Positions 6,042 through 24,557 of a DNA stretch of 64,000 nucleotides are shown piece after piece. Made by a program: the position numbers and the translations under genes. The stretch's first letter is position 1, and each line of letters starts with the position of its first letter. The notes under the pieces are model-generated. The model had not been told where the DNA came from and ran no database searches. It saw nothing but the letters and a program-made list of their open reading frames with translations. The DNA comes from an uncultured Alphaproteobacteria bacterium (GTDB lineage Bacteria; Pseudomonadota; Alphaproteobacteria; RF32; CAG-239): NCBI GenBank assembly GCA_934229625.1, contig CAKQDU010000004.1, positions 27,295 to 91,294 on the forward strand. The letters run 5' to 3'.

Positions 6042-6065
6042 TCTTTAGAGATTGACTACAAAATT

Positions 6066-6098: not shown

Positions 6099-6099
6099 C

Positions 6100-7885: not shown

Positions 7886-9139
7886 TTAAGAATTCATGTT
7901 TTGGAAAAAGTCCGCATTATTCTTAGTCTGACGCAGCTTGTCTAATAGAAATTCCATACCGTCGGTCATGCCCATTTGCATTAAGACACGGCGCAAAACC
8001 CACATTTTTGTTAAGGTTGCACGGTCTACCAGCATTTCTTCCTTACGGGTGCCGGAACGGGTAATATCTATAGTCGGGAATAAACGCTTATCGGTAAGTT
8101 TTCTATCCAAAATGATTTCAGAGTTGCCTGTACCTTTAAATTCTTCAAAAATAACCTCATCCATACGAGAACCCGTATCAATTAAAGCTGTTGCTATAAT
8201 AGTCAAAGAGCCGCCTTCTTCAACATTGCGAGCAGCACCTAAAAGACGCTTAGGACGTTGCAGAGCATTTGCATCAACACCGCCGGTAAGAACCTTACCC
8301 GAAGACGGAACAACAGCATTGTAGGCGCGTCCCAGACGTGTTATTGAATCCAAAAGAATTACAACATCTTTTTTATTTTCTACCAAACGCTTAGCTTTTT
8401 CAATACACATTTCAGCAACTTGAACATGGCGAGTTGCCGGTTCATCAAAGGTAGAAGATATAACTTCGCCTTTAACGGAGCGTGTCATATCCGTAACTTC
8501 TTCAGGACGTTCATCAATCAACAACACCATCAAATAAACTTCTGGATGGTTTGTAGAAATTGCATGAGCTATATTTTGCAGCATAACAGTTTTACCGGTG
8601 CGAGGAGGCGCCACAATCAAACCGCGCTGTCCTTTACCTTGCGGAGCGATTAAATCAATCACGCGAGTGGTATAGTCTTTGTCGCTGCAAATGATATCAA
8701 AGTTTAATTTTTCTGTCGGATAAAGAGGAGTTAAGTTATCAAAATTAACACGCAGTTTAGATTTTTCAGGGTCATCAAAGTTAATAGCATTAACTTTTGT
8801 CAACGCAAAATAACGTTCATTATCTTTAGGAGCGCGGATTTCACCTTCTACGGTGTCACCTGTGCGCAAGCCGAATTTTTTCACCTGAGCCGGAGAAACA
8901 TATATATCATCAGGACTGGCTAAATAATTAGATTTTGAAGACCTTAAAAAACCAAAACCGTCTTGCAAAACTTCTATAACGCCATCGCCGCATATAACAG
9001 TATCTACTTCGGCCAATTTTTTCATAATGGCAAATATTAAATCCTGAACACGCATAGAAGATGCGTCTTCAACTCCCAAATCTTCGGCTTGAGTCAACAA
9101 CTCGGTCGGAGATTTCTCCTTTAATTCCTTTAAATGCAT
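7886..9139 (-). CDS. rho: transcription termination factor Rho
   Basis: 417 aa. N-terminal [18 protein letters not shown]-binding DGFGFLR, Walker [26 protein letters not shown] and a typical C-terminal region. Confidence 0.97.
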
Positions 9140-9300
9140 ACTAACCTTAAAATATTTAGTGATTGTTAAAAAAAACAGAACTTAAAAACATTGAAATGTT
9201 TGTTACATTGCTTATATTAAATATGCAAGCAAAAGTCAATAATTTTTATGCACAAAAAAATTCCCCTTTTAAAATTTAAAATTTAAATAGTTATAGTTAT

Positions 9301-9551
9301 TTATCCCTGCGCAAAATGTGGATAAGATTCTATCCACAGACTTACCAACATTAACAGAATATTTAACAAGGTTAATAAAAAGTTAATGATTCAAGAAGTT
9401 AATAAAACGTTAATATATTTTTTCAACATATCTTGATAAAACGTGTTATATGTTAATAAGTTTGTATAACATTTTTACAAAAAGTTTATACTTTGTTAAA
9501 AACTTTACAGTTGTTTGATTTATTCACAGGAAAAGGCTTAAATGTGGATAA
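9301..9551. other. AT-rich intergenic region with DnaA boxes and TTAA-N7-TTAA motifs (candidate oriC or DnaA/CtrA-regulated promoter region)
   Basis: Perfect DnaA boxes (TGTGGATAA = TTATCCACA) at 9317-9325 and 9543-9551, and a one-mismatch CTATCCACA at 9330-9338 forming an inverted pair with the first. AAATGTGGATAAGATTC is directly repeated. TTAA-N7-TTAA occurs at 9372-9386 and 9399-9413 within repeated GTTAATAAAA(A/C)GTTAAT units. Confidence 0.4.
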
Positions 9552-9581
9552 GATTCATAAGTTTTTGATATAAGGCAAAAG

Positions 9582-10169
9582 ATGAATATTATAGCAATTA
9601 CAGGCTCTATAGGCTGCGGCAAAACTTTTTTAGCAAAAATCATAAGAAAACTTGGATATGTGGTTTATGACGCCGATAAATGGGTTAAATATTTATACTA
9701 TCGTCCGGAGTTTTTAAATGTTATTAAACAAAATTTTCCTAAAGTTTTTGATGATGACGGCAGTTTTAATAAACGAAAATTAAGAAATTTAGTGTTTAAT
9801 GATAATACTGAATTGAAACGGTTGGAAAAAATCATTCATCCGTTTTTAAGAAGAAAATTATTAAATGTTATTCATAAGAATGCCAAGACTGAAAGAGTTT
9901 TCTTTTTTGACGCAGCTCTGCTCTTTGAAATGAAGTGGAATATATATTGTCAGGCCGTTATATTGGCTGATGTAGATAAAAATATTCAAAAACAACGTGT
10001 TATGAAAAGAGATAACATAAGCGCTGAAGACTTTGAAAAAATTGTTTCGCTGCAGATGGATAACGAACATAAAAAAATGTTTACAGATGTAATTATAAAT
10101 ACTAACAAGCCTGAAAATTTATTAAAATCTGAGCTTATTAAAGTTATAAAAGAGTTAACAAATGCGTGA
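9582..10169 (+). CDS. coaE: dephospho-CoA kinase
   Basis: 195 aa with N-terminal P-loop MNIIAITGSIGCGKT; size and pattern typical of CoaE. Confidence 0.88.
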   Translation: MNIIAITGSIGCGKTFLAKIIRKLGYVVYDADKWVKYLYYRPEFLNVIKQNFPKVFDDDGSFNKRKLRNLVFNDNTELKRLEKIIHPFLRRKLLNVIHKNAKTERVFFFDAALLFEMKWNIYCQAVILADVDKNIQKQRVMKRDNISAEDFEKIVSLQMDNEHKKMFTDVIINTNKPENLLKSELIKVIKELTNA

Positions 10170-10881
10170 GATATGTTTTGATACTGAAACAACAGGTTTA
10201 GACCCGGACACCGGAGATAGATTGGTTGAAATCGGAGCGGTTGAGTTGATTAACCATTTACCGACAGGTAAAATTTATCATGAATATATAAATCCTGAAC
10301 GTGATGTTCCGGAAGAAGTTGTAAAAGTGCATGGTTTGGATAATGAATTTTTAAAAGACAAGCCGGTTTTCAGAGATGTTGCTCAATCATGGATAGAGTT
10401 TATAGGCGATGACGGAATTTTAGTGGCTCATAATGCCGCATTTGACTTGAAGTTTATAAATTTTGAATTAAAAAAGTGCGGATTTCAAACGTATGAATGG
10501 GATAGAGTTGTAGATACATTGGCTATTGCCAGAAATGAATTTCCTGGAGCGCGTAACAATTTGGACGCTTTGTGTCGCCGCTTTAATATTGATAACTCCG
10601 CCCGTACGTATCACGGAGCTTTGTTGGATGCTCAACTGTTGGCCGAAGTTTATCTTCAGCTTTTAGGCGGGGATGAACCTAGTATTAACTTTGTTAAATC
10701 ATCGGCTGAAACATCGCAGAAACATGGTGAAAATATTCATTTTTATGCTGAAAATGTCCAAAAACGCAGTTTTTCTTTATCTGCCGAAGAACAACAGGCT
10801 CATCTGGATTTTTTAAGTAAAAGCATAAAAAATGCGCTATGGTTGCAAAATACTGAAAGTGAAACCAAAAAAGATGCTTAA
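10162..10881 (+). CDS. dnaQ: DNA polymerase III epsilon subunit (3'-5' exonuclease)
   Basis: Exo motifs FDTETTGLDP, VAHNAAFDLKFI and HGALLDAQLLAEVY. Overlaps coaE by 8 nt. Confidence 0.92.
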   Translation: MREICFDTETTGLDPDTGDRLVEIGAVELINHLPTGKIYHEYINPERDVPEEVVKVHGLDNEFLKDKPVFRDVAQSWIEFIGDDGILVAHNAAFDLKFINFELKKCGFQTYEWDRVVDTLAIARNEFPGARNNLDALCRRFNIDNSARTYHGALLDAQLLAEVYLQLLGGDEPSINFVKSSAETSQKHGENIHFYAENVQKRSFSLSAEEQQAHLDFLSKSIKNALWLQNTESETKKDA

Positions 10882-12142
10882 ACAGCTGCTGTATATTTAC
10901 AATACCTATATAAATAAAAAAATGTTGATATTGCTGGCGTTGGGATTTACCAGTGGTTTCCCTTTTTTATTGGTTTTCGGAACGCTGAGCTTTTGGCTTA
11001 AGGACTTGGATATATCCTATACTTTAATCGGTGCTTTTTCTTTGGTTAAAATACCATATTCATTAAAATGGGTATGGTCTCCGCTGATAGATAATGTTAA
11101 ATTGCCTTTTTTATATAAAATGGGACGCCGCCGTTCATGGGCGGTTTTTATTCAAATTTTGTTGTTTTGTTCTTTTGCGGCTATGGCTTTCACTAATCCT
11201 GAAAAACATACGCTGCACATGGCTCTTTTTGCTTTTATAGCTAGTTTTTTATCAGCTTCGCAAGATATAGTGTTAGACGCATACAGAGTTGAAAGTTTTG
11301 AAAATGAGCCGGAAAAGCAGGCTTCAGGAGTTGCTATATATGTTCTTGGATATCGTTTAGGATTGATTTTTTCCGGTGCCGGAGCAATTTATATGGCTTC
11401 TTTTTTAAGTTGGCCGGAGGTATATTTAATTATGGCCGGTGGTTTGCTTGTTGGATTTATAGCAGTTCTTTTGGCAAAAGAGCCTCAGGTATATCAATAT
11501 AAAAAATATAAATTAAAGTTGAAAGATAGTATTGCGTTTATTAAAAATTCGCTGGTTAATCCTTTTAAGGATTTCACACAAAAAGAACATTGGTACTGGA
11601 TATTATTATTTATATTTACATATCGTTTAAGCAATGCTTATTTTGGTCCGATGAGTTTTCCTTTTTATGTTGATTTAGGTTTTTCAAAAGCGGAAATTGC
11701 TTCGGTTATCAAGATATATGGTATGGTTGCAGCTATTTTTGGTGGTTTGGCCGGTGGTTTGATTGTTATGAAAATCGGTCTTAAAAACAGTTTGCTTTTG
11801 TTTGGTGCGGCACAATGTTTCACAACATTTTTATTTTCGGTTCAGGCATATTACGGTCATAATATGCCGATGTTTATAACAATTATTACTTTGGAAAATT
11901 TTTCATCTGGTTTAGCTACAACAGCTTTAGTTGCTTATATTTCTTCATTATGTAACAAATTGTATACGGCAACTCAATATGCATTGCTGTCGTCTGTAAT
12001 GAGTTTGTCACGCGACATATTTTCTTCTACCAGCGGATTGGTTGCGCAATATGTTTCATGGAATGTATTTTTTATAATATGCGGATTTTTAAGTTTACCA
12101 AGTCTGATAATTGTGTGGTTTTGCATAAAAAAAGATAAATAG
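10874..12142 (+). CDS. ampG: AmpG-family muropeptide/MFS permease
   Basis: About 12 predicted TM helices. LALGFTSGFPFLLVFGTLSFWLKD and YSLKWVWSPLID resemble the AmpG N-terminus. I chose the ATG at 10874; the track started at 10832. Confidence 0.7.
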   Translation: MLKQLLYIYNTYINKKMLILLALGFTSGFPFLLVFGTLSFWLKDLDISYTLIGAFSLVKIPYSLKWVWSPLIDNVKLPFLYKMGRRRSWAVFIQILLFCSFAAMAFTNPEKHTLHMALFAFIASFLSASQDIVLDAYRVESFENEPEKQASGVAIYVLGYRLGLIFSGAGAIYMASFLSWPEVYLIMAGGLLVGFIAVLLAKEPQVYQYKKYKLKLKDSIAFIKNSLVNPFKDFTQKEHWYWILLFIFTYRLSNAYFGPMSFPFYVDLGFSKAEIASVIKIYGMVAAIFGGLAGGLIVMKIGLKNSLLLFGAAQCFTTFLFSVQAYYGHNMPMFITIITLENFSSGLATTALVAYISSLCNKLYTATQYALLSSVMSLSRDIFSSTSGLVAQYVSWNVFFIICGFLSLPSLIIVWFCIKKDK

Positions 12143-12206
12143 TAATTGTAAAAATTGAAAAAAGGCATTATAATAATAATGTTTTTTTTATTGAAAGATT
12201 TAAATA

Positions 12207-13361
12207 ATGGCCGATGAAAATAAAAATAAATCTTTAGGCGATAAAAGTGCCGAGCAATATTACGAAAAGCATCGCAAAGATGATATGGCTCAGATTTTAG
12301 GGCGTAGCGAATCATGGAAGGCCATAGCTAAACAAATTGATAAATTTTCTGAAAAATCGAATAATGGGCATATTGTAAATGATATTGTTTTTTCCGGCAA
12401 AATGTTGCAAGGCGGCAGTTTTGATGGTGAAAATTTTGAAAATGCCGATTTTAGCGGCAGTAATATGCAGGAAAGCAGCTTTAAAAATGCCAATATGCAA
12501 AATGCTGATTTTACAGGAGCGGATTTAAGCGGAGCGGATTTCAGCGGAGCTAATTTGGATGGAGCTGTTTTTGTCGGCGCGCAGCTTATAGGTACAAATT
12601 TTACCGGCGCGCACATGCACGGCGTAAAATTTCAAAATGCCAATTTACAGGACGCTATTCTTCTGGATGCCGATTTGGATAATCTTTCAATTGAAGAATT
12701 GCAGGAACTTGTTGAATACTTAGCTAAATATTATCCTCATAAATTAAATTTAACCCGTTTAAATCTTACATTGCTGGATTTAAAACGCATAGACCTAACT
12801 CAGGTTAGTCTGCGCGGTGTGGATTTTACGGGATGCGATTTTACCGGTGTTAATATTTATGAACTTGATTTGAGCGAATGCGTTATTTCTCCGGCGCAGA
12901 TTGAACAGGCAATAGGACATGTGCCGACAGCTTTGGAATTGAAAAAAATTTTAGCGCCTAAAAATAAGAAAAAACCGCAAAAAATGAAGGGAATTGATTT
13001 TGAAGACTTTTTTACCGGCGGCAATAAAAGCTTTGATTTAGACACAACTAGTATGGAAATAGATATCAATGCCATCGGTAAAAAGGGAAAAGAAATATTC
13101 AAGTCTTTCAAAAAACGAGATTCCGATGATAAAATCATGGAAAAATTCGGCAAGGAGAAAGAAAATAAAAATCCTGAAAAAAAAGAAAGCAACATAGAAG
13201 AACTTCGTAAAACCATAGAACAGCATAAACGTGAGGTTTTAGAGCGCCGTCAAGAAGTGCATGAAATTGAAAATAAAGAAAAAATGCGTGAGCAAATAAG
13301 AGAAAAAATTAAAGAAAATAAAGCAATGCTTATGCAGGTTCATTCTTCTAGGGAAAGATAA
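12207..13361 (+). CDS. pentapeptide-repeat protein with K/E-rich C-terminal tail
   Basis: Runs of A(D/N)LxG-type pentads: NADFSGSNMQESSFKNANMQNADFTGADLSGADFSGANLDGAVFVGAQLIGTNFTGAHMHGVKFQNANLQDAIL. There is a second block (VSLRGVDFTGCDFTGVNIYELDLSEC), then a charged low-complexity tail. Confidence 0.8.
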   Translation: MADENKNKSLGDKSAEQYYEKHRKDDMAQILGRSESWKAIAKQIDKFSEKSNNGHIVNDIVFSGKMLQGGSFDGENFENADFSGSNMQESSFKNANMQNADFTGADLSGADFSGANLDGAVFVGAQLIGTNFTGAHMHGVKFQNANLQDAILLDADLDNLSIEELQELVEYLAKYYPHKLNLTRLNLTLLDLKRIDLTQVSLRGVDFTGCDFTGVNIYELDLSECVISPAQIEQAIGHVPTALELKKILAPKNKKKPQKMKGIDFEDFFTGGNKSFDLDTTSMEIDINAIGKKGKEIFKSFKKRDSDDKIMEKFGKEKENKNPEKKESNIEELRKTIEQHKREVLERRQEVHEIENKEKMREQIREKIKENKAMLMQVHSSRER

Positions 13362-14680
13362 TGGAAGAAACTCTTTTTTCAAACAAAATAAAACGACCTT
13401 TGGCAGATAGGCTGCGACCGACAAAATTGGAAGAAGTTGTCGGTCAAGACCAGATTGTCGGAGCTGATGCACCATTGGGACGCATGTTAAAATCCGGCAA
13501 AATAAGCTCTTTTATTTTATGGGGACCTCCGGGTTGCGGAAAAACAACAATTGCTCGTTTGATTGCGGAATACACAAATCTTTATTTTGAACAAATATCA
13601 GCGGTTTTTTCCGGCGTTGCCGATTTAAAGCGTGTTTTTCAATATGCGCAGGAACGGCGTGCTAATCAGGGTAAAGGCACATTGCTTTTTGTAGATGAAA
13701 TTCATCGCTTCAATAAATCTCAGCAAGATGGTTTTTTGCCGTATGTTGAAGATGGTACGGTTATTTTGGTTGGTGCCACAACCGAAAATCCTTCGTTTGA
13801 ACTAAACTCAGCTTTGCTTTCGCGCTGTCAGGTTTTTGTGCTTAATCGTTTAACTTCTGATGATTTTGAAATTTTATTGGAAAGAGCTGAAAAAGAAGAA
13901 GGACGAAAATTACCGGTTGATGAAGAAGCTCGTGATTTTATAAAGGAAATAGCCGACGGCGACGGCCGCTATATTTTGAATATTGCAGAAAATATTTGGT
14001 CGTATGCGCAAAATGGTGAAACTTTTAACAAAGAGCAGATTTTAAATATAATTCGTTCGCGAGCGCCTATATATGACAAAGGCAGAGACGGTCACTATAA
14101 TTTAATTTCCGCCGTGCATAAATCTTTACGAGGTTCCGATGTTGACGCTGCCCTATATTGGGTGGCCAGAATGCTTGTGGCTGGAGAAGACCCGCGCTAC
14201 ATTTTGCGCCGGTTGTTAAGATTTTCTGTTGAAGATGTTTCTTTAGCCGACCCTAACGCCGTCAGTCAAGCGATTGCGTGTAGTGAAACTTATGAGCGCT
14301 TGGGTTCGCCAGAAGGAGAACTAGCTATTATGCAATTAACCGCCTATTTAGCAACAGCTCCTAAATCTGCAAGTGTGTATAAGGCGATGCATAAAGCATT
14401 TGACGCGGCTCGGCAAACAGGTTCATTGATGCCGCCAAAACATATTTTGAACGCTCCTACTAAATTGATGAAAGATTTAGGGTATAAAAAAGACTATATA
14501 TATGACCAAGATTTGGAAGACGGCTTTTCCGGTCAAAATTATTTTCCGGACGGCATGAGCCGTTCAAAATACTATAATCCGGTAGACCGTGGTTTTGAGC
14601 GTGAAATTAAAAAACGTATAGAATATTTTGACAGGCTACGTAAAGAAAAACAAGCTAAAATGAAAGAAAAAAATGGCTGA
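13361..14680 (+). CDS. rarA: replication-associated recombination protein A (RarA/MgsA AAA+ ATPase)
   Basis: GPPGCGKTT, LFVDEIHRFNKSQQD, VGATTENPSFELNSALLSRC and the MgsA C-terminal region YDKGRDGHYNLISAVHKSLRGSDVDAALYW. Confidence 0.95.
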   Translation: MEETLFSNKIKRPLADRLRPTKLEEVVGQDQIVGADAPLGRMLKSGKISSFILWGPPGCGKTTIARLIAEYTNLYFEQISAVFSGVADLKRVFQYAQERRANQGKGTLLFVDEIHRFNKSQQDGFLPYVEDGTVILVGATTENPSFELNSALLSRCQVFVLNRLTSDDFEILLERAEKEEGRKLPVDEEARDFIKEIADGDGRYILNIAENIWSYAQNGETFNKEQILNIIRSRAPIYDKGRDGHYNLISAVHKSLRGSDVDAALYWVARMLVAGEDPRYILRRLLRFSVEDVSLADPNAVSQAIACSETYERLGSPEGELAIMQLTAYLATAPKSASVYKAMHKAFDAARQTGSLMPPKHILNAPTKLMKDLGYKKDYIYDQDLEDGFSGQNYFPDGMSRSKYYNPVDRGFEREIKKRIEYFDRLRKEKQAKMKEKNG

Positions 14681-15050
14681 GTATATCTATAAAATATGTG
14701 TTAGCTATAATGTTTTTTGCAAGCTGCAGGAATGCGATATTATTCCAAGTCTTGAAGAAAATCATGTAGGGCTGGAAATTCATATTTCTAAAGAAGATTA
14801 TAAAAAATTATCTGATGAGGAAAAGAAAAATTTAAAGCAGTATGAAGTTGTAAATTCTCCATTGCCGAAACAGCGCAAAATTGGACCGCTGTTTGATGAA
14901 ATAAAAGCCGAAGATTTAAATAGCGCTGCTGAAAAAATCAAGTGTAAAATGAAAATACCGGATTTAGCAAAATCTAAAAATATAAAACAAAAGTATTATA
15001 TTCCCAGAACAATAGGCAAAGTTAACACAAAGAAAAAAGGTGGTAGATAA
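14673..15050 (+). CDS. hypothetical protein
   Basis: 125-aa ORF overlapping rarA by 8 nt and ending just before the pseudouridine synthase gene. No recognisable motif. Confidence 0.4.
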   Translation: MAEYIYKICVSYNVFCKLQECDIIPSLEENHVGLEIHISKEDYKKLSDEEKKNLKQYEVVNSPLPKQRKIGPLFDEIKAEDLNSAAEKIKCKMKIPDLAKSKNIKQKYYIPRTIGKVNTKKKGGR

Positions 15051-15051
15051 A

Positions 15052-15981
15052 ATGTCAGGCGTAACAATAGTTAAAATAAAAGCAGAAGATGACGGCATAA
15101 GGCTTAACCGTTGGTTTTTGCGTGAATATCCTTCTTTGAGCTTAGGGCGTTTGCAAAAACTTTTGCGTACCAAACAAATTAAAGTAGACGGCAAAAGAGC
15201 CGAAACATCTACTAGATTAACCACAGGTCAAGAATTGCGCTTACCTCCTCTGGATAAGGAAAAAGCCGTGAAAACCGCTGAAAATATCAGCAAAAATGAT
15301 GCTGATTATATAATGTCTTTAGTAATTTATAAAGATAAAGATATTATAGCTCTTAATAAACCGTCCGGATTGGCTGTGCAAGGGGGAACTAATACCTCTC
15401 GTCATGTTGACGGATTTTTAGAAGCTTTAAAATTTGAAAACAATGAAAAACCGAAATTAGTTCATCGTATAGATAAAGAAACCAGCGGTATTTTATTGTT
15501 GGCGCGCAATCGAAAATCAGCAGAAATATTAACTAAAGCTTTTAGAGAACACAGTTTGCAGAAAACATATTTGGCTTTGGTGCGCGGCTGTCCGCAAAGA
15601 CTTAGCGGAGAAATAAATTTACCATTGGAAAAAGTCGGCGAAAAAATGGAAGTTGTAAAAGGAGGTAAAAAAGCCGTTACAACTTATGAGGTTTTAGATA
15701 GTGCTGCTAAAAAATATGCTTTATTGGCGGCGTCTCCGCTGACAGGCAGAACACATCAGATTAGAGCGCATTTAGAAGCGTTAGGCTGTCCTATTTTAGG
15801 CGATAATAAATATTATGGAGTGGAACGTGTACGTTTAAAAGAGGTTGCGGATAAACTATATTTACATGCGTATAAAATAGATTTATCTGAGATATATGGT
15901 AAAAATATGGTAATTTATGCCGAATTGCCGCAATATTATAAAGAAGCATGTGCGTTTTTTGGATTGGAGTATAAAAAATGA
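15052..15981 (+). CDS. RluA-family 23S rRNA pseudouridine synthase (RluC/RluD-like, with S4 domain)
   Basis: S4-like N-terminus (RLNRWFLREYPSLSLGRLQKLLRTKQIKVDGKR), catalytic motif HRIDKETSGILLLAR, and GRTHQIRAHL. The ATG at 15052 has AAGGTGG upstream. Confidence 0.88.
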   Translation: MSGVTIVKIKAEDDGIRLNRWFLREYPSLSLGRLQKLLRTKQIKVDGKRAETSTRLTTGQELRLPPLDKEKAVKTAENISKNDADYIMSLVIYKDKDIIALNKPSGLAVQGGTNTSRHVDGFLEALKFENNEKPKLVHRIDKETSGILLLARNRKSAEILTKAFREHSLQKTYLALVRGCPQRLSGEINLPLEKVGEKMEVVKGGKKAVTTYEVLDSAAKKYALLAASPLTGRTHQIRAHLEALGCPILGDNKYYGVERVRLKEVADKLYLHAYKIDLSEIYGKNMVIYAELPQYYKEACAFFGLEYKK

Positions 15982-17792
15982 AAAAATTTTTAATAATTTT
16001 ATTTGTAATCATTTTAGTCCCTGTGCTTGGTTTGATTACATTTTTGAAATTTGCAGATTTTAATAATTATAAACCGCAAATTGAAGCAATGGCGCTGAAA
16101 TATGCGAATATGATTGTTAAAATCAATGGCGACTTAAAAATAGGTGTTTCTCTTAAACCTAGTATAGAATTAAATGATGTATCGGTTGCTAAAGCAGAAA
16201 ATAATCAGCCGGTGGCGCAAATAGGCCAAGCTCAGGTGCAGTTTTCTTTGTTGCCGCTTTTGAAAAAAGAAATTGTGGTAGATACGGTTAAAACTTCTGA
16301 TACAAATGTTTTTTACAGCGACAAGGATAGCGTAGAAATAAAAGATTTGGCTGTGGGAATGGATAGCTTTGATTCTCCTATCAATCTAAGCTTTGATACT
16401 GTTGTTTCCGGTGTGCAAATTACCGGCGATGGTACAACGTCTTCATTTAAGTCTATTCAAGATTCAGAATATAATGATGTTTCCGCAAAATTACAGATAA
16501 ATGTTTTGGGGTATACATTAAATTATGATGGCGGAGTTAAAGGTCTGACAAAGGGATTAACTTCTGAGGGTTTATATGAAATTAAATATAAATCAAATAA
16601 AATAAATGGAAATATTTTAGCTGATTTAACCGGAAAAACACCGTATTTAAAGCTTAATGCTGCCAGCGATAATTTGAATGTGTATGAATTTACAGAAACT
16701 AAAAAAGCTGATATTAACTGGCTTATATCAGAAGCTCAGGCTAATGATTTAATTAAAAATACCCCTATTCCGTATGATGTTTTAAAGTCTGTAAACGCTG
16801 ATGTTAGTATTGACCTTAAAACAGTTAACATCACACCAGATATGACTTTGACGAATATTTTAACCGATTTAGCTTTGAAAAACGGTGTATTTAAAGCTGA
16901 TATAAAGAATATAAACGGCGGAGACGGTGTGATTAAGGGCGTTGCAACTCTTGACGCTAATACAAAAAATATGAATGTTAATTTGACAGGTAATGGCATA
17001 GTTTTGCAAAAATTAAACAAAAATTTTGCCGATTCAGGTAATGATGCTTTATATGTAAAAAGCGGCGGAAAAAGTGATTTTAGCATAAAATTAAATACTT
17101 TCGGAATTGATACAGACCAATATTTAGCAAATATGAATGGTCAGGTTGTAGCAATTATTGACAGCTCTGTTATGAATGTTAAAAGTTTGGAACGTTTGCA
17201 AGGCAATATTATTGTTCAGATTCTTAATAATTTGCAATTGAATATTAGGAATAAAGATATGAAACTTAATTGCGCAGTTGTCCGCAGCGATATTAAAAAA
17301 GGTGTTGCAGAATTTCCTAAAGGAATAGCGTTTGATGCAAATGATTTTTATGTTGTGGCTGACGGCAGTGTAAATCTGTATAATGAAAAAATAGATTTGG
17401 ATTTACAACCTTTTTCAGGAAGAATCACAGATACAAATGTTTCATCTGTTTTAGGTTCATTACTAAGTGTTTCCGGAACAATGTCTAACCCGCGTGTCGG
17501 CTTAAACAAAACACAGACAGCTAAAGCTGTTGTCGGTATTATTGCTACAGGTGGTCTATATAACGCCGGAGACATGGTTTTGAGTGCCGATTCTTCTCCA
17601 TGCTACACAGCATTGCAGGGAACGGAATATGCAAACTATTTCAAAGCTTCGGAAACAGGCGTAAAAAATGATGCTTCGAAAACATATACCGACACTCAAA
17701 ATGCTGTGAAAAAATCTTTAACAGACACTAAAGCAGCGGTAAAAGATTTAGGCAGCCAAGCCGGAAATTTATTGAAAGGTTTGGTTAAATGA
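15978..17792 (+). CDS. AsmA-family outer-membrane biogenesis protein
   Basis: 604 aa with an N-terminal anchor MKKFLIILFVIILVPVLGLITFL. Long beta-rich body with AsmA-like N- and C-terminal patterns (ADGSVNLYNEKIDLDLQP). Assigned by resemblance only. Confidence 0.55.
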   Translation: MKKFLIILFVIILVPVLGLITFLKFADFNNYKPQIEAMALKYANMIVKINGDLKIGVSLKPSIELNDVSVAKAENNQPVAQIGQAQVQFSLLPLLKKEIVVDTVKTSDTNVFYSDKDSVEIKDLAVGMDSFDSPINLSFDTVVSGVQITGDGTTSSFKSIQDSEYNDVSAKLQINVLGYTLNYDGGVKGLTKGLTSEGLYEIKYKSNKINGNILADLTGKTPYLKLNAASDNLNVYEFTETKKADINWLISEAQANDLIKNTPIPYDVLKSVNADVSIDLKTVNITPDMTLTNILTDLALKNGVFKADIKNINGGDGVIKGVATLDANTKNMNVNLTGNGIVLQKLNKNFADSGNDALYVKSGGKSDFSIKLNTFGIDTDQYLANMNGQVVAIIDSSVMNVKSLERLQGNIIVQILNNLQLNIRNKDMKLNCAVVRSDIKKGVAEFPKGIAFDANDFYVVADGSVNLYNEKIDLDLQPFSGRITDTNVSSVLGSLLSVSGTMSNPRVGLNKTQTAKAVVGIIATGGLYNAGDMVLSADSSPCYTALQGTEYANYFKASETGVKNDASKTYTDTQNAVKKSLTDTKAAVKDLGSQAGNLLKGLVK

Positions 17793-18289
17793 TAGACTTT
17801 AAGCAAGCGGAAAAAGAAATAAAAGAACATCGTTCCGAAGTTATAGAAAAACTTGTCGAGTTTTCTTTTACGGATGTTATTTTGTTTTGGAGCGCCAACG
17901 GTGATGTTAAAAAATTACAAACTGAAAAGTGGCTTCCGGTACTAAAATGGCTGAATAATCGTTTTAGAATTACTCTTAAAGAAACAGATGGACTGACACC
18001 AATTCCGCAAAACGAAAATAACCGCGCCGGTTTTACGGAGATTTTAGAAAAAATGAGCTTAAAAATGCTTACGGCTTATTATTTGGCCGCTGTGCGTCTG
18101 AAATCTCCTTTGCTGGCTCTTGCCTTTACCGAAAAGAAAATAACCGCTTCCGAGGCTTTTGAGCTGGCTTATTTGGAAGAATTATATCAAAGTAAGTCGT
18201 GGGGTGTTGATGAAGAAGCTGAAAAAGGACGGCAATGTGTGAAAAAAGAGCTTTTGGAAACAGAAGAATTTCTGCACGGTAAAAAATAA
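17789..18289 (+). CDS. ATP12-family F1-ATPase assembly chaperone (short)
   Basis: YLAAVRLKSPLLALAF...ASEAFELAYLEELYQSKSWGVDEEA resembles the ATP12 C-terminal region. At 166 aa it is shorter than I would expect for this family. Confidence 0.55.
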   Translation: MIDFKQAEKEIKEHRSEVIEKLVEFSFTDVILFWSANGDVKKLQTEKWLPVLKWLNNRFRITLKETDGLTPIPQNENNRAGFTEILEKMSLKMLTAYYLAAVRLKSPLLALAFTEKKITASEAFELAYLEELYQSKSWGVDEEAEKGRQCVKKELLETEEFLHGKK

Positions 18290-18570
18290 TGTTAAAATGC
18301 TTTTTAGTAAGCGGCAGGGTTCAGGGCGTCGGTTTTCGCTTTTGGACCCTGCGCCGCGTTTCTGAAATTGGTGGAATTTCTGGTTATGTCTGTAATCTAC
18401 CTAGCGGAGATGTGCTGGTTTTGGCTGAAAGTGCAGAAGATAAACTGCGCCAGCTTGAAATATCTTTATATAAAGGTCCTATGTTTGCCAGAGTTGATAG
18501 CGTAAAAAATTTACCGGAGTTTATTTCGTATTTTCCGGCGCCGGAGAACGGTGTATTTAAACGTTTATAG
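18289..18570 (+). CDS. acyP: acylphosphatase
   Basis: 93 aa; VSGRVQGVGFRFWT matches the acylphosphatase signature V.G.VQGV.FR. Confidence 0.85.
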   Translation: MLKCFLVSGRVQGVGFRFWTLRRVSEIGGISGYVCNLPSGDVLVLAESAEDKLRQLEISLYKGPMFARVDSVKNLPEFISYFPAPENGVFKRL

Positions 18571-18639
18571 AACTGTAAGTCAGGTTTTTTATCACAAATT
18601 AGAGAATATATTTTTGCCGAATATAAAAAGGAGGCCAAA

Positions 18640-18921
18640 ATGAAAAAAGTAGATAAAACCACCGAAAATATAAAACTTTGCCGCTGTATGACTTGTCCGT
18701 CATATACGGAACATTGCAAGCTTAAAAACTCGCCGGAGAATTTTTTGAAATCTTTGGAAAATTTACAAAATATGCAGCATTATGAAAAATTGTATTGCGC
18801 GTTTGAAAAGAGTAATTGTATTTATCAGGATAAAGGCTGTGTCTGCAGCGAATGTGATGTTTATAAAAACTATAATCTGCAAAATCATGATTATTGTCTG
18901 CACACCGGTGGTGTTTTGTAA
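18640..18921 (+). CDS. small Cys-rich protein (DUF2769-like)
   Basis: Strong SD (AAAGGAGG). CRCMTCPSYTEHC...YCAFEKSNC...GCVCSECDVY resembles the DUF2769 cysteine pattern as I recall it. Confidence 0.5.
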   Translation: MKKVDKTTENIKLCRCMTCPSYTEHCKLKNSPENFLKSLENLQNMQHYEKLYCAFEKSNCIYQDKGCVCSECDVYKNYNLQNHDYCLHTGGVL

Positions 18922-19118
18922 GCGATTTTGTGGTCTGACAACAGTAATTATAAGTGTTATACAAATATAAATTTTAATGTCAGAAATCTACCGCATTGTT
19001 CTTCTTTTTGGGGGAATAATGCGGTTTTTTAGACATTTTAGACTAAAAATTTCTTTACATTTAGTATAACAACACTATAATAAATCACAAATTTTATTAT
19101 TAACTAATACTTTTTATT

Positions 19119-20078
19119 ATGAATATTTTTATTATTGATAAAAGCTATGTGATTAAAAAGATTAAATCTGTAGCTGGTGGCTGGAAACTGTATCCTCAGG
19201 ATAAAAATGAAAAAGAAATTTTTATCAGCAAGCAATATTATGCCGGTAAAATGCCTTTTATGTTTCCCTGGCAGACCTTTAAGTTGGATATCGTCTATGT
19301 CTGGGGTTCTAAGAATAACGAAATCGGCTTTATAACTTCTGCGGTTCTGAATGGAAAAAAGCTTTTTGAAGTTCCAAAGAAAGAGTATCCTGCACATATC
19401 AAAAAAAAGGTAGATGCTGGCGATGAGATTAACAGTAAACAACAAGAACATATTGATACTGTCAATAAGGCTGTTATTTCTGCCTTGGATTCTTTTTTGC
19501 CTACGATTATGCTGTATTATGGGTGTACTGGCTTGAATGTGGATTTACGATGCTATCTTGGTCTTCACTTTTTTAAGGGAGAAAAGACTCCGGAATATGA
19601 GCAACGCTTAAAGCTTATGACGATTCTTTGCCGGATTGCCGAGCGTATATACAAGCGTCACGTGAATATGGATGACTGTTGGAATGTTGGCTTATCGGCC
19701 ATAAAGTTTGGTCTTCCAGGACCGTATTATGGTGATGAGAACATGCCTCTTGACAAGGAAAGTCCGGCTATGCAAATGTTTTGGGAAGTAGATGATTTGC
19801 TTAACGAATATCTTCCTCCAAAAATGAATATTTTGCTGCGTCAGTATCTTAATTATGTTGTGCGTGACATATTGCGAGTTTTTGCACAAGATTATAATCT
19901 GATTTGCAAAGGCAAATTGGATCCGTTTGAACATTTCCATGAAGAATATTCTGACGAAAAAGTCTTTAGGTTGAACATAGAAAAAATGCAAATGCCTAAG
20001 TACACATCTTTTATTCTGCCTAAAGTTTTCAGCGATGTTGAAATTTATAGCTTCACCCGTGACTATAATTTGGATTAA
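19119..20078 (+). CDS. hypothetical protein
   Basis: 319-aa ORF followed by a strong bidirectional terminator. No motif recognised. Confidence 0.5.
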   Translation: MNIFIIDKSYVIKKIKSVAGGWKLYPQDKNEKEIFISKQYYAGKMPFMFPWQTFKLDIVYVWGSKNNEIGFITSAVLNGKKLFEVPKKEYPAHIKKKVDAGDEINSKQQEHIDTVNKAVISALDSFLPTIMLYYGCTGLNVDLRCYLGLHFFKGEKTPEYEQRLKLMTILCRIAERIYKRHVNMDDCWNVGLSAIKFGLPGPYYGDENMPLDKESPAMQMFWEVDDLLNEYLPPKMNILLRQYLNYVVRDILRVFAQDYNLICKGKLDPFEHFHEEYSDEKVFRLNIEKMQMPKYTSFILPKVFSDVEIYSFTRDYNLD

Positions 20079-20083
20079 ACTAA

Positions 20084-20120
20084 AAAAACAGCCTTAGTTA
20101 TAAAACTAAGGCTGTTTTTG
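20084..20120. terminator. bidirectional hairpin terminator
   Basis: ACAGCCTTAGT(20088-20098)/ACTAAGGCTGT(20105-20115), flanked by an A-run and a T-run, between convergent genes. Confidence 0.8.
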
Positions 20121-20130
20121 TCTTCTTAAA

Positions 20131-20976
20131 TTAGGCTTTAATTTCCGGCTTATCTGTTTTTAAGTTTTTTTCGTAGGCGCGTTTATCATGCAAAAATTTG
20201 ATAATCGTAAAAGGAATTGTCAATAAATAAGCTAAAGTAAACAATCCCAATGTCAGCCAGGGTTGGGTTAACAAGCAACTTACAAACAAAGCAAACAAAA
20301 CCATTAAAGGCAGAAAATAATCAGCGTTAATGCGTGTTTTTTTGAGTGACAGAGTAGGAATTCTGCTAACCATTAAATAGGCTACCAAAAGCATAAGGAT
20401 ACTGCACAAATATTTGTTGCGCAAAATAAAATCATATTCCGGATAAGCAAATGAAATCAGCAGCGGCATAACTGCAATTGCAGCAGCCATAGGAGCTGGT
20501 ACACCAACAAAGTAATGTGACCAATATTCCGGAACAGTTGCGTCTTCCAACATAGTGTTAAAACGAGCCAAACGCATAGCCATACCGGCAGCGAACATCA
20601 GCGTAAAAATCCAACCCCAATGAGGAATGGTGTTTAAGCACCATTGATACATCAATATAGCCGGAGCTACGCCGAAACTAACAAAGTCGGATAATGAATC
20701 CAATTCGGCGCCGAATTTTGATGAGGCTTTTAACTTACGGGCCACACGTCCATCCAAACCATCAAAAACGCAAGCTAAAAACAGGCAGACTATTGCAAAT
20801 GTCCAATTTTGCATAATTGCAAATTTGATTGTTGTTACACCTGAGCATAAGGCCATCAATGTTACAATATTAGGAGCCATTTTACGAAAAGGAACTTCCT
20901 TAAATTTACCGATTGCTTTCTTTTTTATACCGCTGCGCATTGTTGCAGGGTGATTATTTTGATATGTTTTAGCCAT
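20131..20976 (-). CDS. pssA: CDP-diacylglycerol--serine O-phosphatidyltransferase
   Basis: CDP-alcohol phosphatidyltransferase motif DGLDGRVARKLKASSKFGAELDSLSD, multiple TM helices, and adjacency to psd. Confidence 0.9.
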   Translation of the reverse strand: MAKTYQNNHPATMRSGIKKKAIGKFKEVPFRKMAPNIVTLMALCSGVTTIKFAIMQNWTFAIVCLFLACVFDGLDGRVARKLKASSKFGAELDSLSDFVSFGVAPAILMYQWCLNTIPHWGWIFTLMFAAGMAMRLARFNTMLEDATVPEYWSHYFVGVPAPMAAAIAVMPLLISFAYPEYDFILRNKYLCSILMLLVAYLMVSRIPTLSLKKTRINADYFLPLMVLFALFVSCLLTQPWLTLGLFTLAYLLTIPFTIIKFLHDKRAYEKNLKTDKPEIKA

Positions 20977-21683
20977 TATCTTATTTCTCCTTCAATACGG
21001 GGAGCTCCTGAATTTATATCAGCGACAATTGTTTCTCCGCCAATCAAATGCTGTCCGACACAAACTTGCGGTTCAATTTTTTCCGGTAAATACAAATCAA
21101 CATATCCGCCGAAACGAATAAAACCGAAACGTTGTCCGGCAATAAATTCGTCACCTCTTTTTAACTTAGCAACAATGCGTTTGCTGCAAAATAAAGCTGT
21201 TTGCTGCAATACAAATTCTAAGCCTTCACTATGTTTTAGGGCAATAAGCATTCTTTCATTTTTTATATTATTTTTGGTTGTAGAACCCGAAAATTTTTGT
21301 CCGGCGTCGTAAAAAGTTTTACTGACCGTGCATTTTATAGGTATACGGTTTATATTGACATCAAAAGGACTGACATAGATACTTAGTTTAGTATAATTTT
21401 TACGGTCAAGACCTAAGGCATCAGGCCCTTTTTCACGGTTTATGGCAACGATATAGCCATCGGCAGGCGCGATAACCGCACCTGACAAAACAGGCGTAAC
21501 TCTGATAATGTCACGAAAACTATAAAAACACCAGATTGTTATTAAAAATGAAAGACAGCCGAGCGGAAACCATATAAGCGTAAATATCAAAGAAATAAAC
21601 GCCAAAGCACTAACAAATTTCCACCCGTCCTCATTTATATTTGGAAAAAAATAATGATGAAGAGATGTGTCGACAAATTTCAT
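20976..21683 (-). CDS. psd: phosphatidylserine decarboxylase-family protein (short type), atypical processing motif
   Basis: I chose the start at MKFVDTS (GGAG upstream); the track extends to 21812. FRD..R, ISPADG-like IAPADGYIV and the C-terminal GQRFGFIRFGGYVDLYLP align by eye with short-type PSDs. The usual FGS(R/T) serine reads GGY here. Confidence 0.75.
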   Translation of the reverse strand: MKFVDTSLHHYFFPNINEDGWKFVSALAFISLIFTLIWFPLGCLSFLITIWCFYSFRDIIRVTPVLSGAVIAPADGYIVAINREKGPDALGLDRKNYTKLSIYVSPFDVNINRIPIKCTVSKTFYDAGQKFSGSTTKNNIKNERMLIALKHSEGLEFVLQQTALFCSKRIVAKLKRGDEFIAGQRFGFIRFGGYVDLYLPEKIEPQVCVGQHLIGGETIVADINSGAPRIEGEIR

Positions 21684-21847
21684 TTTTTTCTCCCCAAAGA
21701 ATACCGAAACGCTGTTTCTGCGTATTCTCAAGTTAAATAGAGGAATGTTTTTTCCTCTTTCCGCCATATAATTAAGCATATTTTGCAAAAAAAGACAAGT
21801 TTTATGTTGCAAATATAAAAAAATTTATGTATAACACAATCAATGAT

Positions 21848-21934
21848 GCGCTTGTGGCGGAATCGGTAGACGCTGCAGACTTAAAATCTGTTGGGATTTA
21901 TCCCGTGCCAGTTCAAGTCTGGCCTAGCGCACCA
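21848..21934 (+). tRNA. tRNA-Leu (anticodon UAA), type II, CCA encoded
   Basis: GCGCTTGTGGCGGAATCGGTAGACGCTGCAGACTTAAAATCTGTTGGGATTTATCCCGTGCCAGTTCAAGTCTGGCCTAGCGCACCA. Has a long variable arm and anticodon loop CTTAAAA, with one U-U mismatch in the acceptor stem. Confidence 0.88.
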
Positions 21935-21998
21935 ATTAAAAAATGCTTTCCTTCAGGAGGGCTTTTTTTGTGAAAAAACAACAACTAATACACTATTG

Positions 21999-22024
21999 TC
22001 CGCTAATGAAGCGGATTTTTTTTA
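21999..22024 (+). terminator. intrinsic terminator downstream of tRNA-Leu
   Basis: TCCGC(21999-22003)/GCGGA(22011-22015) followed by T9. Confidence 0.6.
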
Positions 22025-22054
22025 TTCAAAATAAAAGCATTATGCAAATTGAAA

Positions 22055-22232
22055 GTGTGTAAAAAAAACGACCGTTTAAAATGGACAGTTTTTAGGCTGT
22101 TTTTTATAGTCTAGCAAAGGTTGCCGAAATTTGCAATAACTTTTTATATTTGCGATGTTTTTTGCTGTTTTTACAACATTTTATTGCCGCTTGTTTTGCT
22201 GTGTAAAAATAACGGTCGTTTTTTTTACACAC
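22055..22232. repeat. perfect 22-bp inverted repeat flanking a 134-bp segment directly upstream of pilin-like paralog C
   Basis: IRL is GTGTGTAAAAAAAACGACCGTT (22055-22076). IRR is AACGGTCGTTTTTTTTACACAC (22211-22232), its exact reverse complement. IRR ends 15 nt before the ATG, next to the SD GAGGAGG. The enclosed segment contains -35/-10-like hexamers (TTGCCG-17 nt-TTATAT) facing the gene. Confidence 0.85.
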
Positions 22233-22247
22233 TTGAGGAGGAATAAG

Positions 22248-22961
22248 ATGTTTAAGGGTATAGAATTTTTCAGAGGAAAAAGCTGGGTAGCGGAGCTTGG
22301 ATTGCTTCCCTCAGCTCGCAATGACATTTGCTCTGCCGGTCGGTCAATGATAGAAATGCTGGGCGTACTTGCCATTATCGCTGTTTTGACAGTCGGTGGT
22401 ATCGCCGGTTATTCCAAAGCTATGGAAAAGTTTAAGGTAAATAAAGCAATTTCAGAATATAGTTATTTAATTCAGGGATTGATGGAACATCTGGCAGAAA
22501 TTCAAAAAATGTCAAATATTCAAGAGGGCGATGTTCATCATGGACTGATAAATGTTGTTCAGGCGACTAATTTAGTCCCAGAAACTTGGAAAAATGCAGG
22601 CTCTCAGGCTGATGATAGAATGATTGACCCATATGGTAATGTAATACAAATATTTTCACGATATAAACGTTTGGTTATAGATATGTATCTTGGCGGCTAC
22701 AGCGCTCTGGATGACGGCACACAGGCTTCACTTTCTTTTTCGCCTAAGTTTTGCAGCGCTTTAATGCAGGATGTGGTGCAACCTTTAGCATCTGTTTTAA
22801 ATAAAGCTTGGTTTACCTATGGTAATACTTATTATGGCGATAAACATTGTGGCTCAGGTTCAAAATGTATTAGAGATTTGAAACTAAGCGATATAAATAG
22901 GGTCTGCAATTACTGCACCAAACAGTCTGGACGTTTCTGCGGACTAATATTGGAATTTTAA
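22248..22961 (+). CDS. prepilin-like Cys-rich secreted protein, paralog C
   Basis: Start chosen at the ATG after GAGGAGGAATAAG. MFKGIEFFRGKSWVAELGLLPSARNDICSAG|RSMIEMLGVLAIIAVLTVGGIAGYSKAMEKFKVNKAISEYSYLIQGL. The C-terminus is CGSGSKC...CNYCTKQSGRFCGLILEF. Confidence 0.72.
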   Translation: MFKGIEFFRGKSWVAELGLLPSARNDICSAGRSMIEMLGVLAIIAVLTVGGIAGYSKAMEKFKVNKAISEYSYLIQGLMEHLAEIQKMSNIQEGDVHHGLINVVQATNLVPETWKNAGSQADDRMIDPYGNVIQIFSRYKRLVIDMYLGGYSALDDGTQASLSFSPKFCSALMQDVVQPLASVLNKAWFTYGNTYYGDKHCGSGSKCIRDLKLSDINRVCNYCTKQSGRFCGLILEF

Positions 22962-23020
22962 TATTATGTCCATAAAAGAACAGTCTTGGTTTGGGATAAA
23001 AACTAAGACTGTTTTTCGGT

Positions 23021-23650
23021 TTAAAATACTAAGATAAGTCCGCAGAGTTTGTTTGCTTCTTTGGTGCAGTAATTGCATACATTGTTAATTTCTCTTAAGC
23101 TTATATTTCTGATGCAGAGTGTACTTTCGCTGCAATAAGCATCGCCCATATATTGATTTCCATTTGTAAAGAAAGCTTTATTTAAAACAGATGCTAAAGG
23201 CTGCACCACATTTTGCATAAGCGATGAACAGAACTTAGGTGAAAATGCAGTTGAAGCAGAGCCTCCGTCAACAGATTGGAAGCCGCCAAGATACATATCT
23301 ATAACTAAAGTTTGGCTGCGGGAGAAAATTCTGATTAAGTTCCCGTAGGGGTCGTTGTAATTGTGATTAGATATTTTTTCCCATGTTTCCGGCACCAAAC
23401 TTTCGGCTTCCACAACGCTGGTTAATCCATATTGAATGTCGCCCTCATTGGGTTTTGAAACATTTTGCAAATCTTTTAAGTGTTCTAACAGTCCTTGAAT
23501 TAAGTAGCTGTATTCGCTCACGGCTTTGTCAACCTTAAACTTTTCCATAGCTTTGGAATAGCCGGCAATACCGCCAACTGTCAAAACAGCGATGATAGCT
23601 AAAACGCCCAGCATCTCAATCATAGACCGACCGCATTGATTATTTTTCAT
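23021..23650 (-). CDS. prepilin-like Cys-rich secreted protein, paralog B
   Basis: 209 aa, MKNNQCG|RSMIEMLGVLAIIAVLTVGGIAGYSKAMEKFKVDKAVSEYSYLIQGL...FSPKFCSSLMQNVVQPLASVLNKAFF...CNYCTKEANKLCGLILVF. Convergent with paralog C. Confidence 0.75.
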   Translation of the reverse strand: MKNNQCGRSMIEMLGVLAIIAVLTVGGIAGYSKAMEKFKVDKAVSEYSYLIQGLLEHLKDLQNVSKPNEGDIQYGLTSVVEAESLVPETWEKISNHNYNDPYGNLIRIFSRSQTLVIDMYLGGFQSVDGGSASTAFSPKFCSSLMQNVVQPLASVLNKAFFTNGNQYMGDAYCSESTLCIRNISLREINNVCNYCTKEANKLCGLILVF

Positions 23651-23875
23651 AAGAACTTCCTTTCTCTTTGAAATTAAACAAAAAAGCCGTCTGAAAAAGA
23701 CGACCGGAAGTTGAGAACTACTGTATATAAGTATAGTGTAGCATATTAGCGTATAGCATATTTTGCTACCTTCCGATCAATAGACCAGAAGGTATTTTAC
23801 GTCTAATAATTGACGTATATACAAGAGGTTCTCACACCTCGAACAGACTATCGTCCATCTGCCTTAATGCTATAA
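23651..23875 (-). promoter_or_regulatory. structured 5' leader of paralog B (second copy of the candidate riboswitch/attenuator)
   Basis: Same block order as 6766-7000. Closing helices are 23828-23833c:23713-23718c and 23816-23823c:23722-23729c. Terminator hairpin at 23686-23704c + U6 (23680-23685c). Anti-SD AACUUCC is at 23706-23712c and SD GGAAGUU at 23654-23660c. Confidence 0.6.
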
Positions 23876-23896
23876 AAAAAGCGGTAAAATATCAAG

Positions 23897-23934
23897 TAAA
23901 AAATGTTTCAGTTGGTGACAAATTGTCACCAACT
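23897..23934 (-). terminator. hairpin terminator after fic
   Basis: Perfect 11-bp stem AGTTGGTGACA(23910-23920)/TGTCACCAACT(23924-23934). A U-run begins ~5 nt downstream on the minus strand. Confidence 0.55.
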
Positions 23935-23948
23935 CGTGAGTTAAGAAA

Positions 23949-24557
23949 CTATATCAAATCGTGAATATTATATTCGTCATAGCCCTCATAATAGTAGCTG
24001 ACATCAATACCTTTCATAAATATTTCTCGTTCATTGATTTTATCAGTAAGGGCGTTTTGCAGCAAATGTTTGATTTCTATATCTTTAACCGGACTTCGTT
24101 CCATAGCAGAAAGATAATCGGCTTTATCAATTTTATTCCAATCCACGACTTTTTTCAGTTCTTTTTTGAAGATTAAATCAAGCCAGATTCTAGTCGCACG
24201 CCCGTTTCCCTCTCTAAAAGGGTGGGCAACGTTCATTTCCACATATTTTTCCACTATTTCATCAAAATTTGATTGCGGCATTTTATCTATTTGCTTTAGG
24301 GATTGCGCTAAATACATAACCGGAGCAAACCGAAAATTTCCTTTAGCAATGTTGACTGTGCGGAGCTTACCTGCAAAATCGTAAATATCTTCAAACAAAT
24401 ACTTATGAATTTGTTTCAGACCGGCAAAAGTTCCGACTTTTATTTTTTCAATTTTTCCGCTGTCAAAGAGCTTTTTAGCCTTAATTTTACTTATTTTCTC
24501 TTCAGCCTTATTTAGTTCTATTTGGTCTGTGATATTTAATTTATTTTCTAAAACCAT
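23949..24557 (-). CDS. fic: Fic-family protein adenylyltransferase (AMPylase), class III-type
   Basis: 202 aa. Fic motif [12 protein letters not shown] (aa 112-123) and a C-terminal SYYYEG (aa 187-192) fitting the inhibitory [S/T]xxxE[G/N] helix motif. Confidence 0.88.

Follow-up and report, generated by a model that had tools for sequence, protein, structure and literature searches.

A probable Mpi-type invertible promoter in front of a prepilin-like gene, one of a genome-wide family of units in an uncultured gut alphaproteobacterium

The closest described systems are the invertible promoters of gut Bacteroides. In B. fragilis, 13 invertible regions have been described (PMC4747536), the promoter of PSF is of the Mpi type and strongly OFF-biased (PMC10403206), and the repeat of the Mpi-controlled promoters reads ARACGTTCGTN (PMC8375218). 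The invertible CPS promoters of B. intestinalis are 183-186 bp long and are flanked by GTTCGTTTAA (PMC8375218).

The window, i.e., the whole 64,000-nucleotide stretch of alphaproteobacterial DNA that was analysed, contains at 22057-22230 a unit that probably belongs to a set of invertible promoters ('invertons') of this Bacteroides Mpi type, with copies dispersed over the genome. The resemblance to B. fragilis includes the presence of Mpi-family serine recombinase genes (NF009949, above the cut-off), the existence of many dispersed promoter segments of ~170-190 bp that share one common inverted repeat and carry a predicted promoter inside, and the position of the switches upstream of surface-structure genes in a human-gut host, with some loci OFF-biased. 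The repeat AAACGACCGTT (core AAACG-AC-CGTT) agrees with ARACGTTCGTN at 9/11 positions, differing only in the central dinucleotide (AC vs TT). At the same time, the host is an uncultured alphaproteobacterial genus, and 24 prepilin-like genes, together with Cys-rich proteins, take the place of capsule operons as targets; ~28 switches are found in 1.5 Mb, compared with the 13 regions of B. fragilis (PMC4747536). The sites are 30-bp A/T-tract palindromes with the centre AC/GT, unlike TT in B. fragilis, one half-site is an asymmetric variant in the units of the pilin class, the genomes encode several Mpi paralogs each, and both orientations were found only at sibling units, not at those of the pilin class. 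The CPS promoters of B. intestinalis are similar in segment size and share ...CGTTTAA with the inner half of the left site of the unit (GACCGTTTAAAA), but differ in the central dinucleotide, host and target genes.

The crossover sites of serine invertases such as Hin and Gin consist of two half-sites around a non-palindromic dinucleotide and are placed in opposite orientation at the two ends of the segment. The sites described below follow the same plan as the hix/gix sites of Hin/Gin/Cin/Pin, with inverted half-sites around an asymmetric 2-bp core, inverted sites and exchange at the site centre. The differences are that the recombinase gene lies neither inside nor beside the segment (the interior is 114 bp, and contig C4, which contains the window, has no PF00239 match), that many targets would be served by each enzyme, and that a Fis-type enhancer is not known here. 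The segment is also far smaller than those of Hin (~1 kb) and of Gin/Cin/Pin (several kb).

In the fimS switch of E. coli, tyrosine recombinases (FimB/FimE) are encoded beside the switch, the repeats are 9 bp long and the segment comprises 314 bp. The first-pass annotation of the locus had compared it with both fimS and the Bacteroides promoters. The second comparison proved apt, as far as the Mpi type (serine) is concerned; the first extends to a promoter segment in inverted repeats directly upstream of a fimbrial or pilin-type gene, with ON/OFF states, and goes no further, as the window contains no PF00589 matches, no tyrosine recombinase is encoded nearby, and the sites and enzymes are of the serine-invertase type. 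Literature searches found no description of invertons in these Alphaproteobacteria.

Anatomy of the unit and its copies

The features of the locus and of a partial copy of the unit in the same window are as follows.

7252-7359, plus strand: partial copy, containing the left site (P-AC-V) and the promoter-bearing half of the interior, without the right site
21848-21934, plus strand: tRNA-Leu(UAA), the upstream neighbour (ARAGORN, Rfam tRNA)
21998-22024, plus strand: terminator-like hairpin (21998-22016) and T-run, between tRNA-Leu and the unit
22053-22076, unstranded: left arm of the perfect inverted repeat, 24 nt
22057-22086, unstranded: left 30-bp recombination site, P-AC-V, with outer half GTGTAAAAAAAACG, centre AC (22071-22072) and inner variant half CGTTTAAAATGGAC
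22087-22200, unstranded: putatively invertible interior, 114 bp between the two 30-bp sites
22201-22230, unstranded: right 30-bp recombination site, P-GT-P, palindromic, with GTGTAAAAATAACG, centre GT (22215-22216) and CGTTTTTTTTACAC
22211-22234, unstranded: right arm of the perfect inverted repeat, 24 nt
22235-22241, plus strand: Shine-Dalgarno sequence GAGGAGG, assigned from the sequence and kept after every copy of the unit
22248-22961, plus strand: prepilin-like paralog C, 237 aa, with a long leader followed by G/RSMIEMLGVLAIIAVLTVGGIAGY

The two arms of the inverted repeat (22053-22076 and 22211-22234) are 100% complementary, with 134 nt between them. The first-pass annotation had described this perfect repeat with the same spacing and slightly shorter arms (22 nt instead of 24), and it had correctly placed the end of the right arm 15 nt ahead of the ATG (22248), beside GAGGAGG, as well as a terminator between the unit and tRNA-Leu. 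The terminator-like hairpin with its T-run is predicted to insulate the unit from tRNA-Leu, to which the promoter-like TTGCAA-N17-TATAAC at 21809-21837 belongs. A 22-mer of the arm has three matches in the window, compared with 0 expected from shuffles of the window; the third match (7250-7271) belongs to the partial copy.

Each arm is part of a 30-bp dimer-type site, GTGTAAAAAWAACG-RY-CGTT..., composed of two 14-bp half-sites and a 2-bp centre; P and V stand for the canonical and the variant half, respectively. The left site has the conserved variant GTCCATTTTAAACG as its inner half, and the perfect repeat noticed at first corresponds to the outer half, the centre and the first 4 bases of the inner half. 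Searches of the genome (1.5 Mb, 22 contigs, 38-40% G+C) revealed 54 such sites, 27 of them P-V and 27 P-P. The 10-mer AACG(AC/GT)CGTT occurs 57 times, where ~2 occurrences are expected, and lies inside an extended site in 56 of these 57 cases; the 20-mer GTGTAAAAAAAACGACCGTT has 58 occurrences in the genome at up to 2 mismatches.

The unit, treated earlier as a feature of this locus, turned out to be one of ~28 near-identical copies. A BLAST search with the 182-bp unit against its own genome found more than 20 full copies with 92-99% identity, and partial copies at contig ends, and the 54 sites (~28 units) are spread over 16 contigs. The paired copies have one internal orientation throughout, relative to the conserved downstream ...TTGAGGAGGAATAAGATGTTTAAG..., and an RBS and start codon follow the 28 gene-proximal sites, the genes encoding prepilin-like proteins in 24 cases and Cys-rich secreted proteins in 4. 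The modules are 92-99% identical across paralogs with divergent coding regions. The same sites are present in at least 9 related gut MAG species, and these units account for many contig breaks in MAGs of this group.

Conservation was assessed with 84 distinct units of the window's class; besides this genome, two sister species and additional MAGs contributed to the set, which covers at least 9 species. Of the 84 units, 78 have a length of 174 bp, and the arm positions are 99.5% invariant: non-consensus letters make up 16/3360 (0.5%) of the arms and 1796/9744 (18%) of the interior. Both crossover cores are under strong purifying selection.

The label 'pilin' is weakly backed by family models. 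Paralog C has no Pfam or NCBIfam match, and the neighbouring paralog B scores 17.8 bits with N_methyl, below the cut-off of 21.2, and has E = 0.004 with GspG. Inspection by eye shows the motif G/RSMIEML and a hydrophobic helix in the prepilin-like gene, the 24 paralogs have the long leader followed by G/RSMIEMLGVLAI..., and the genome encodes an A24 prepilin peptidase and a PilB/GspE-type ATPase. One of the switched pilin-like paralogs (C1:223896, minus strand) is truncated to 87 aa; the other 23 comprise 228-270 aa.

Promoter direction and orientation of the units

Two promoter-like elements were distinguished in the interior.

22108-22136, minus strand: conserved predicted promoter P(-), with -35 TTGCAA (22136-22131), 17-nt spacer, TG (22116-22115) and -10 TAGACT (22113-22108)
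22121-22150, plus strand: possible second promoter P(+), TTGCCG-N18-TATATT (consensus scan)

P(-) is directed at the left site, away from the prepilin-like gene. On the minus strand of the 84 units, TTGCAA is nearly invariant and the 17-nt spacer is variable in the middle; in the -10 region T1, A2, T6 and the TG are conserved in 84/84, A4 in 76/84, and positions 3 and 5 vary. The resulting TTGCAA-N17-TGn-TAnAyT has the classic extended -10 pattern, and we infer a promoter of the sigma-70 type from it. The same signature, GTTATTGCAA-N17-TAnAnT, lies ~20 nt inside one site in all units seen flipped and faces the gene in the alleles called ON. The first-pass annotation had taken hexamers facing the gene for the promoter; the consensus scan does list gene-facing ones, but the promoter conserved on the minus strand of the 84 units faces away. 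A gene-facing TTGnnn-N18-TATAWT is also conserved in these units, lying within a fully conserved A/T block, and because of this surrounding block the conservation of TATAWT is non-diagnostic. The P(+) region may alternatively represent an A/T-rich UP-like region of P(-), and some basal expression from P(+) may take place. Since P(-) points away from the gene, the switch, as assembled, seems to read OFF; we word this as an inferred state because the gene-facing TTGnnn-N18-TATAWT is conserved too.

Inversion was found at sibling loci with identical sites. In the sister species G004 and G013, the sites are 100% identical and the interiors have diverged; at 2/2 orthologous loci compared between the two, the flanks are collinear (87-98%), and the interiors match at 89-95% only if one of them is inverted, compared with 65% otherwise. 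In the units with two palindromic sites found across the MAGs, the promoter is directed toward the gene in 6, away from it in 7 and lies between divergent genes in 3. Different states also exist inside the species of the window: ahead of an identical 635-aa Cys-rich protein, the genome analysed here (G000) and L221 have the switch ON, and L217, L219 and L220 have it in exactly inverted form. The sample of L217 (ERZ4561846) also yields a contig with the window's locus, in the reference orientation. A unit with the architecture of the window's one (P-AC-V / P-GT-P) precedes a GT87-like gene in a sister species, where it is ON in L090 and L226-L229, with the promoter end and the V half adjoining the gene, and OFF in L230 and L233; the interior of L230 aligns to the inverted form with a score of 51, against 7 for the direct one. 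In this GT87 pair, the marker of the inner half (CGTTA...) moves with the interior and the outer one (CGTTT...) stays, which places the exchange inside AACG-GT-CGTT, the central 10 bp.

Among ~130 assembled copies of units of the pilin class, the window's locus included, none is flipped, although these copies are not independent and the assemblies give the majority orientation only. The counts of units in the reference orientation were as follows.

Own genome: 26/26
Metagenome contigs: 38/38
Contigs of paralog C: 6/6
Contigs of three other paralogs: 17/17
Contigs of Cys-rich MFNYL genes: 4/4
Units in other species: 38/39, the exception being the GT87 locus

An inverted pilin-gene unit is expected to create the junction (SD flank)-GTGTAAAAAAAACGACCGTT-TAAAATGGAC; the scan of the metagenome contigs for this predicted gene-proximal junction gave 0 matches, and the control pattern found 38 contigs. 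Look-ups of the exact proteins in public assemblies (paralog C, three more pilin paralogs and both MFNYL genes) did not reveal a flipped copy. In majority-state assemblies, the same picture would arise from 24 genes that are individually ON in a few percent of cells. The invertible promoter put forward in the first-pass annotation is supported in kind by the anatomy, by the inversion of units with the same sites elsewhere and by the Mpi-family genes, and the part of the proposal that concerns the pilin-class copies is the one where inversion was not seen.

The single orientation of the ~130 pilin-class copies would also be expected if the unit at the pilin genes no longer inverts, or never did, and constitutes a fixed regulatory module, where the sites serve as operators (e.g., for a paralog of the invertases with a repressing or looping role) and the gene-facing promoter drives the gene. 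The direction of the conserved TATAWT toward the gene and the retention of the variant inner half-site GTCCATTTTAAACG in the left site are in line with this explanation, but exactly the same site architecture inverts before the GT87-like gene, and units with two palindromic sites invert freely. In addition, the opposite strand carries the better promoter signature, the one directed toward the gene in ON alleles, and both crossover cores are under strong purifying selection. This explanation is rather unlikely.

Rearrangements of another kind were observed at several loci. In L225 and L232 from the sister species, and in L040 (G004:C33), one palindromic site alone connects the far flank with the gene, and the interior is missing; in L225, the repeat runs 17 nt past the site on both sides, including the RBS. 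As the sites are palindromic, the two sites of a unit also contain direct repeats (TTTTTACACACTTA), which could mediate deletion. In L218 (a contig of ERZ4561837), the identical 635-aa gene has a completely different upstream region and no switch. The single-site alleles (L225, L232 and L040), the L218 allele with its unrelated upstream region, and the high identity of the modules (92-99%), next to the divergence of the paralog coding regions, could be explained by a module that serves mainly gene conversion, cassette exchange and large rearrangements among the pilin paralogs. We consider this improbable, as it leaves the fixed 174-bp length, the internal promoter and the inverted asymmetric dinucleotides unexplained, and the inversions actually seen at sibling loci are local.

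The first-pass annotation had also suggested competing RNA structures, where the arms would pair in the 5' leader, compete with a local hairpin by the RBS and control translation or termination. A perfect 24-bp long-range stem is possible, and the local hairpin beside the right arm does exist as a second fold of 15 bp (22200-22214 / 22217-22231), because the right-hand site is itself palindromic. However, the terminator is located just upstream, and no conserved promoter precedes the left arm. The arms are invariant and do not covary, the arm variants in the 84 distinct units being one-sided in 12 of 13 cases, and this pattern fits DNA sites recognised by a protein and lends no support to an RNA stem. 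The same sites flank unrelated interiors, which differ between the classes of units, and also occur singly; the Rfam search over 5500-24500 found two tRNAs and nothing else, hence no match at the unit, and it is the DNA itself that is found inverted at the sibling loci. The suggestion was not upheld, and the probability of an RNA switch appears to be very low. A MITE with terminal inverted repeats that landed by chance upstream of the gene, which multicopy elements of ~180 bp with perfect terminal repeats, often at contig ends, might bring to mind, was rejected as scarcely credible, since all copies have one register, i.e., one distance and orientation, before the RBS and start codon, target-site duplications are lacking, the flanks are conserved on both sides and no transposase with these ends was found.

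Invertase genes and the proposed switching mechanism

The earlier statement that the window contains no recombinase gene holds, and it applies to the whole contig C4, where neither serine nor tyrosine recombinase genes were found; the PF00239 (serine recombinase) search gave nothing on this contig, and the PF00589 (tyrosine recombinase) matches are confined to contigs C1, C2, C3 and C10. The genome-wide search for invertases revealed 8 serine and 5 tyrosine recombinase genes, all off the window's contig. Four of the serine recombinases match the NCBIfam model NF009949 'master DNA invertase Mpi family', the curated cut-off of which is 272 bits; C14:25222-25833 (318.9 bits) and C1:27623-28282 (293.1 bits) are above it, and two further paralogs (266 and 261 bits) are below. 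The Mpi family is represented in 20/25 genomes of the genus and in 0/16 other genomes of the class, and, among 14 control genomes, in Bacteroides thetaiotaomicron only.

In the tree of the Mpi-family proteins of the genus, the clade of the C14 type (93% identity, SH-aLRT 95) comprises exactly the 4 site-bearing genomes among the 25 sampled (G000 and three relatives), and the clade of the C1 type comprises 3 of those 4. In seven further site-bearing MAGs, the C14 type is present in 6/7 (83-99% identity) and the C1 type in 7/7 (75-94%). Each candidate type is present in 10 of the 11 site-bearing genomes, the C14 type being absent from G043 and the C1 type from G018, so neither is preferable as the cognate invertase, and the co-occurrence of invertases and sites could simply reflect the shared ancestry of a subclade. 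No sites adjoin the C14-type invertase gene in three genomes.

Genomes of the genus (~1.5 Mb) contain up to 7 Mpi-family invertase genes, which belong to several clades. Genomes without the sites hold other Mpi clades, which suggests several parallel site-and-invertase systems. A variant site, GTCCAAAAAAAACGACCGTT, was found in G022. In three genomes, the C14-type invertase gene is followed by a conserved 200-aa ORF (MIVG[CY]IN.NKKNVD...; C14:24401-25003, L212 4085-4687, L213 3770-4372). The first 60 residues of this ORF have no Pfam match, and its start loosely resembles the N-terminus of a resolvase without the catalytic serine motif.

A switching mechanism can be proposed where a trans-acting Mpi-family serine invertase, the candidates being the two paralog types C14:25222-25833 and C1:27623-28282, would bind both sites as dimers. 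The enzyme would cut at the central dinucleotides (AC on the left and GT on the right, the sites being inverted), and the segment would then rotate. In the assembled state, the predicted promoter TTGCAA-N17-TGn-TAGACT would fire away from the prepilin-like gene (OFF); in the inverted state, it would lie ~20 nt away from the right-hand site, and transcription would run through this site into GAGGAGG-ATG (ON). The same switch precedes 24 prepilin-like paralogs and two Cys-rich proteins, all of which would be OFF as assembled. It is most likely that each gene is ON in a minority of cells, in which case the pilin-like surface family would undergo phase or antigenic variation.

A wider scenario is offered tentatively, as a possibility that we would not put ahead of its negation: an Mpi-family invertase, probably from gut Bacteroidales, may have been recruited by the alphaproteobacterial genus to run a regulon of ~28 switches with a stringent OFF bias, the 24-member pilin-like family being expressed few at a time and the variant half-site GTCCATTTTAAACG helping to set the bias. 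Such a regulon, if real, would be the densest inverton regulon known (~1 switch per 54 kb) and the first one linked to a multigene family of pilins. Should the switches flip as proposed, a gut alphaproteobacterium varies two dozen pilin-like surface proteins by the master-invertase logic of the Bacteroides capsules. This would extend global phase variation of the Mpi type beyond Bacteroidales, show that it is able to control subunits of protein filaments, and suggest that an entire regulatory strategy has passed from one gut phylum to another. With its 30-bp sites, 174-bp unit and 200-aa enzyme, the system is compact enough for studying how inversion bias is set.

Several related arrangements were noted in the same sequences. 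The partial copy at 7252-7359 cannot invert because the right site is absent. Its P(-) aims at tRNA-Thr (7091-7166, minus strand) and then at pilin-like paralog A (6100-6765, minus strand), a gene that itself lacks a switch; on the plus strand, only a 98-aa ORF fragment (7357-7653) lies downstream of this copy. Approximately half of the units have a further repeated module 250-450 nt upstream, ...ccataagtcaaccg.aaaatcaaagcgttattatggtcgaaagt and beyond, ahead of the left site. These alphaproteobacterial switches also occur in the public bins CAVEOB01, CAVIDY01, CAVKTH01 and CAVGVF01, the titles of which are '[Ruminococcus] gnavus', 'Bacteroidaceae bacterium' and 'Eubacteriales bacterium', and the labels given by the submitters look wrong.

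At C2:1672-1864, a 125-bp segment is located between two sites, with divergent genes of Cys-rich proteins on either side. The 5' coding parts of these genes are inverted duplicates, with identical 75- and 96-aa frames on both sides, and the predicted promoter TTGAAA-N17-TATACT is currently directed toward the minus-strand gene; L092 and L129 are similar. Judging by its arrangement, this locus looks like a toggle that would express one of two alternative N-termini or genes.
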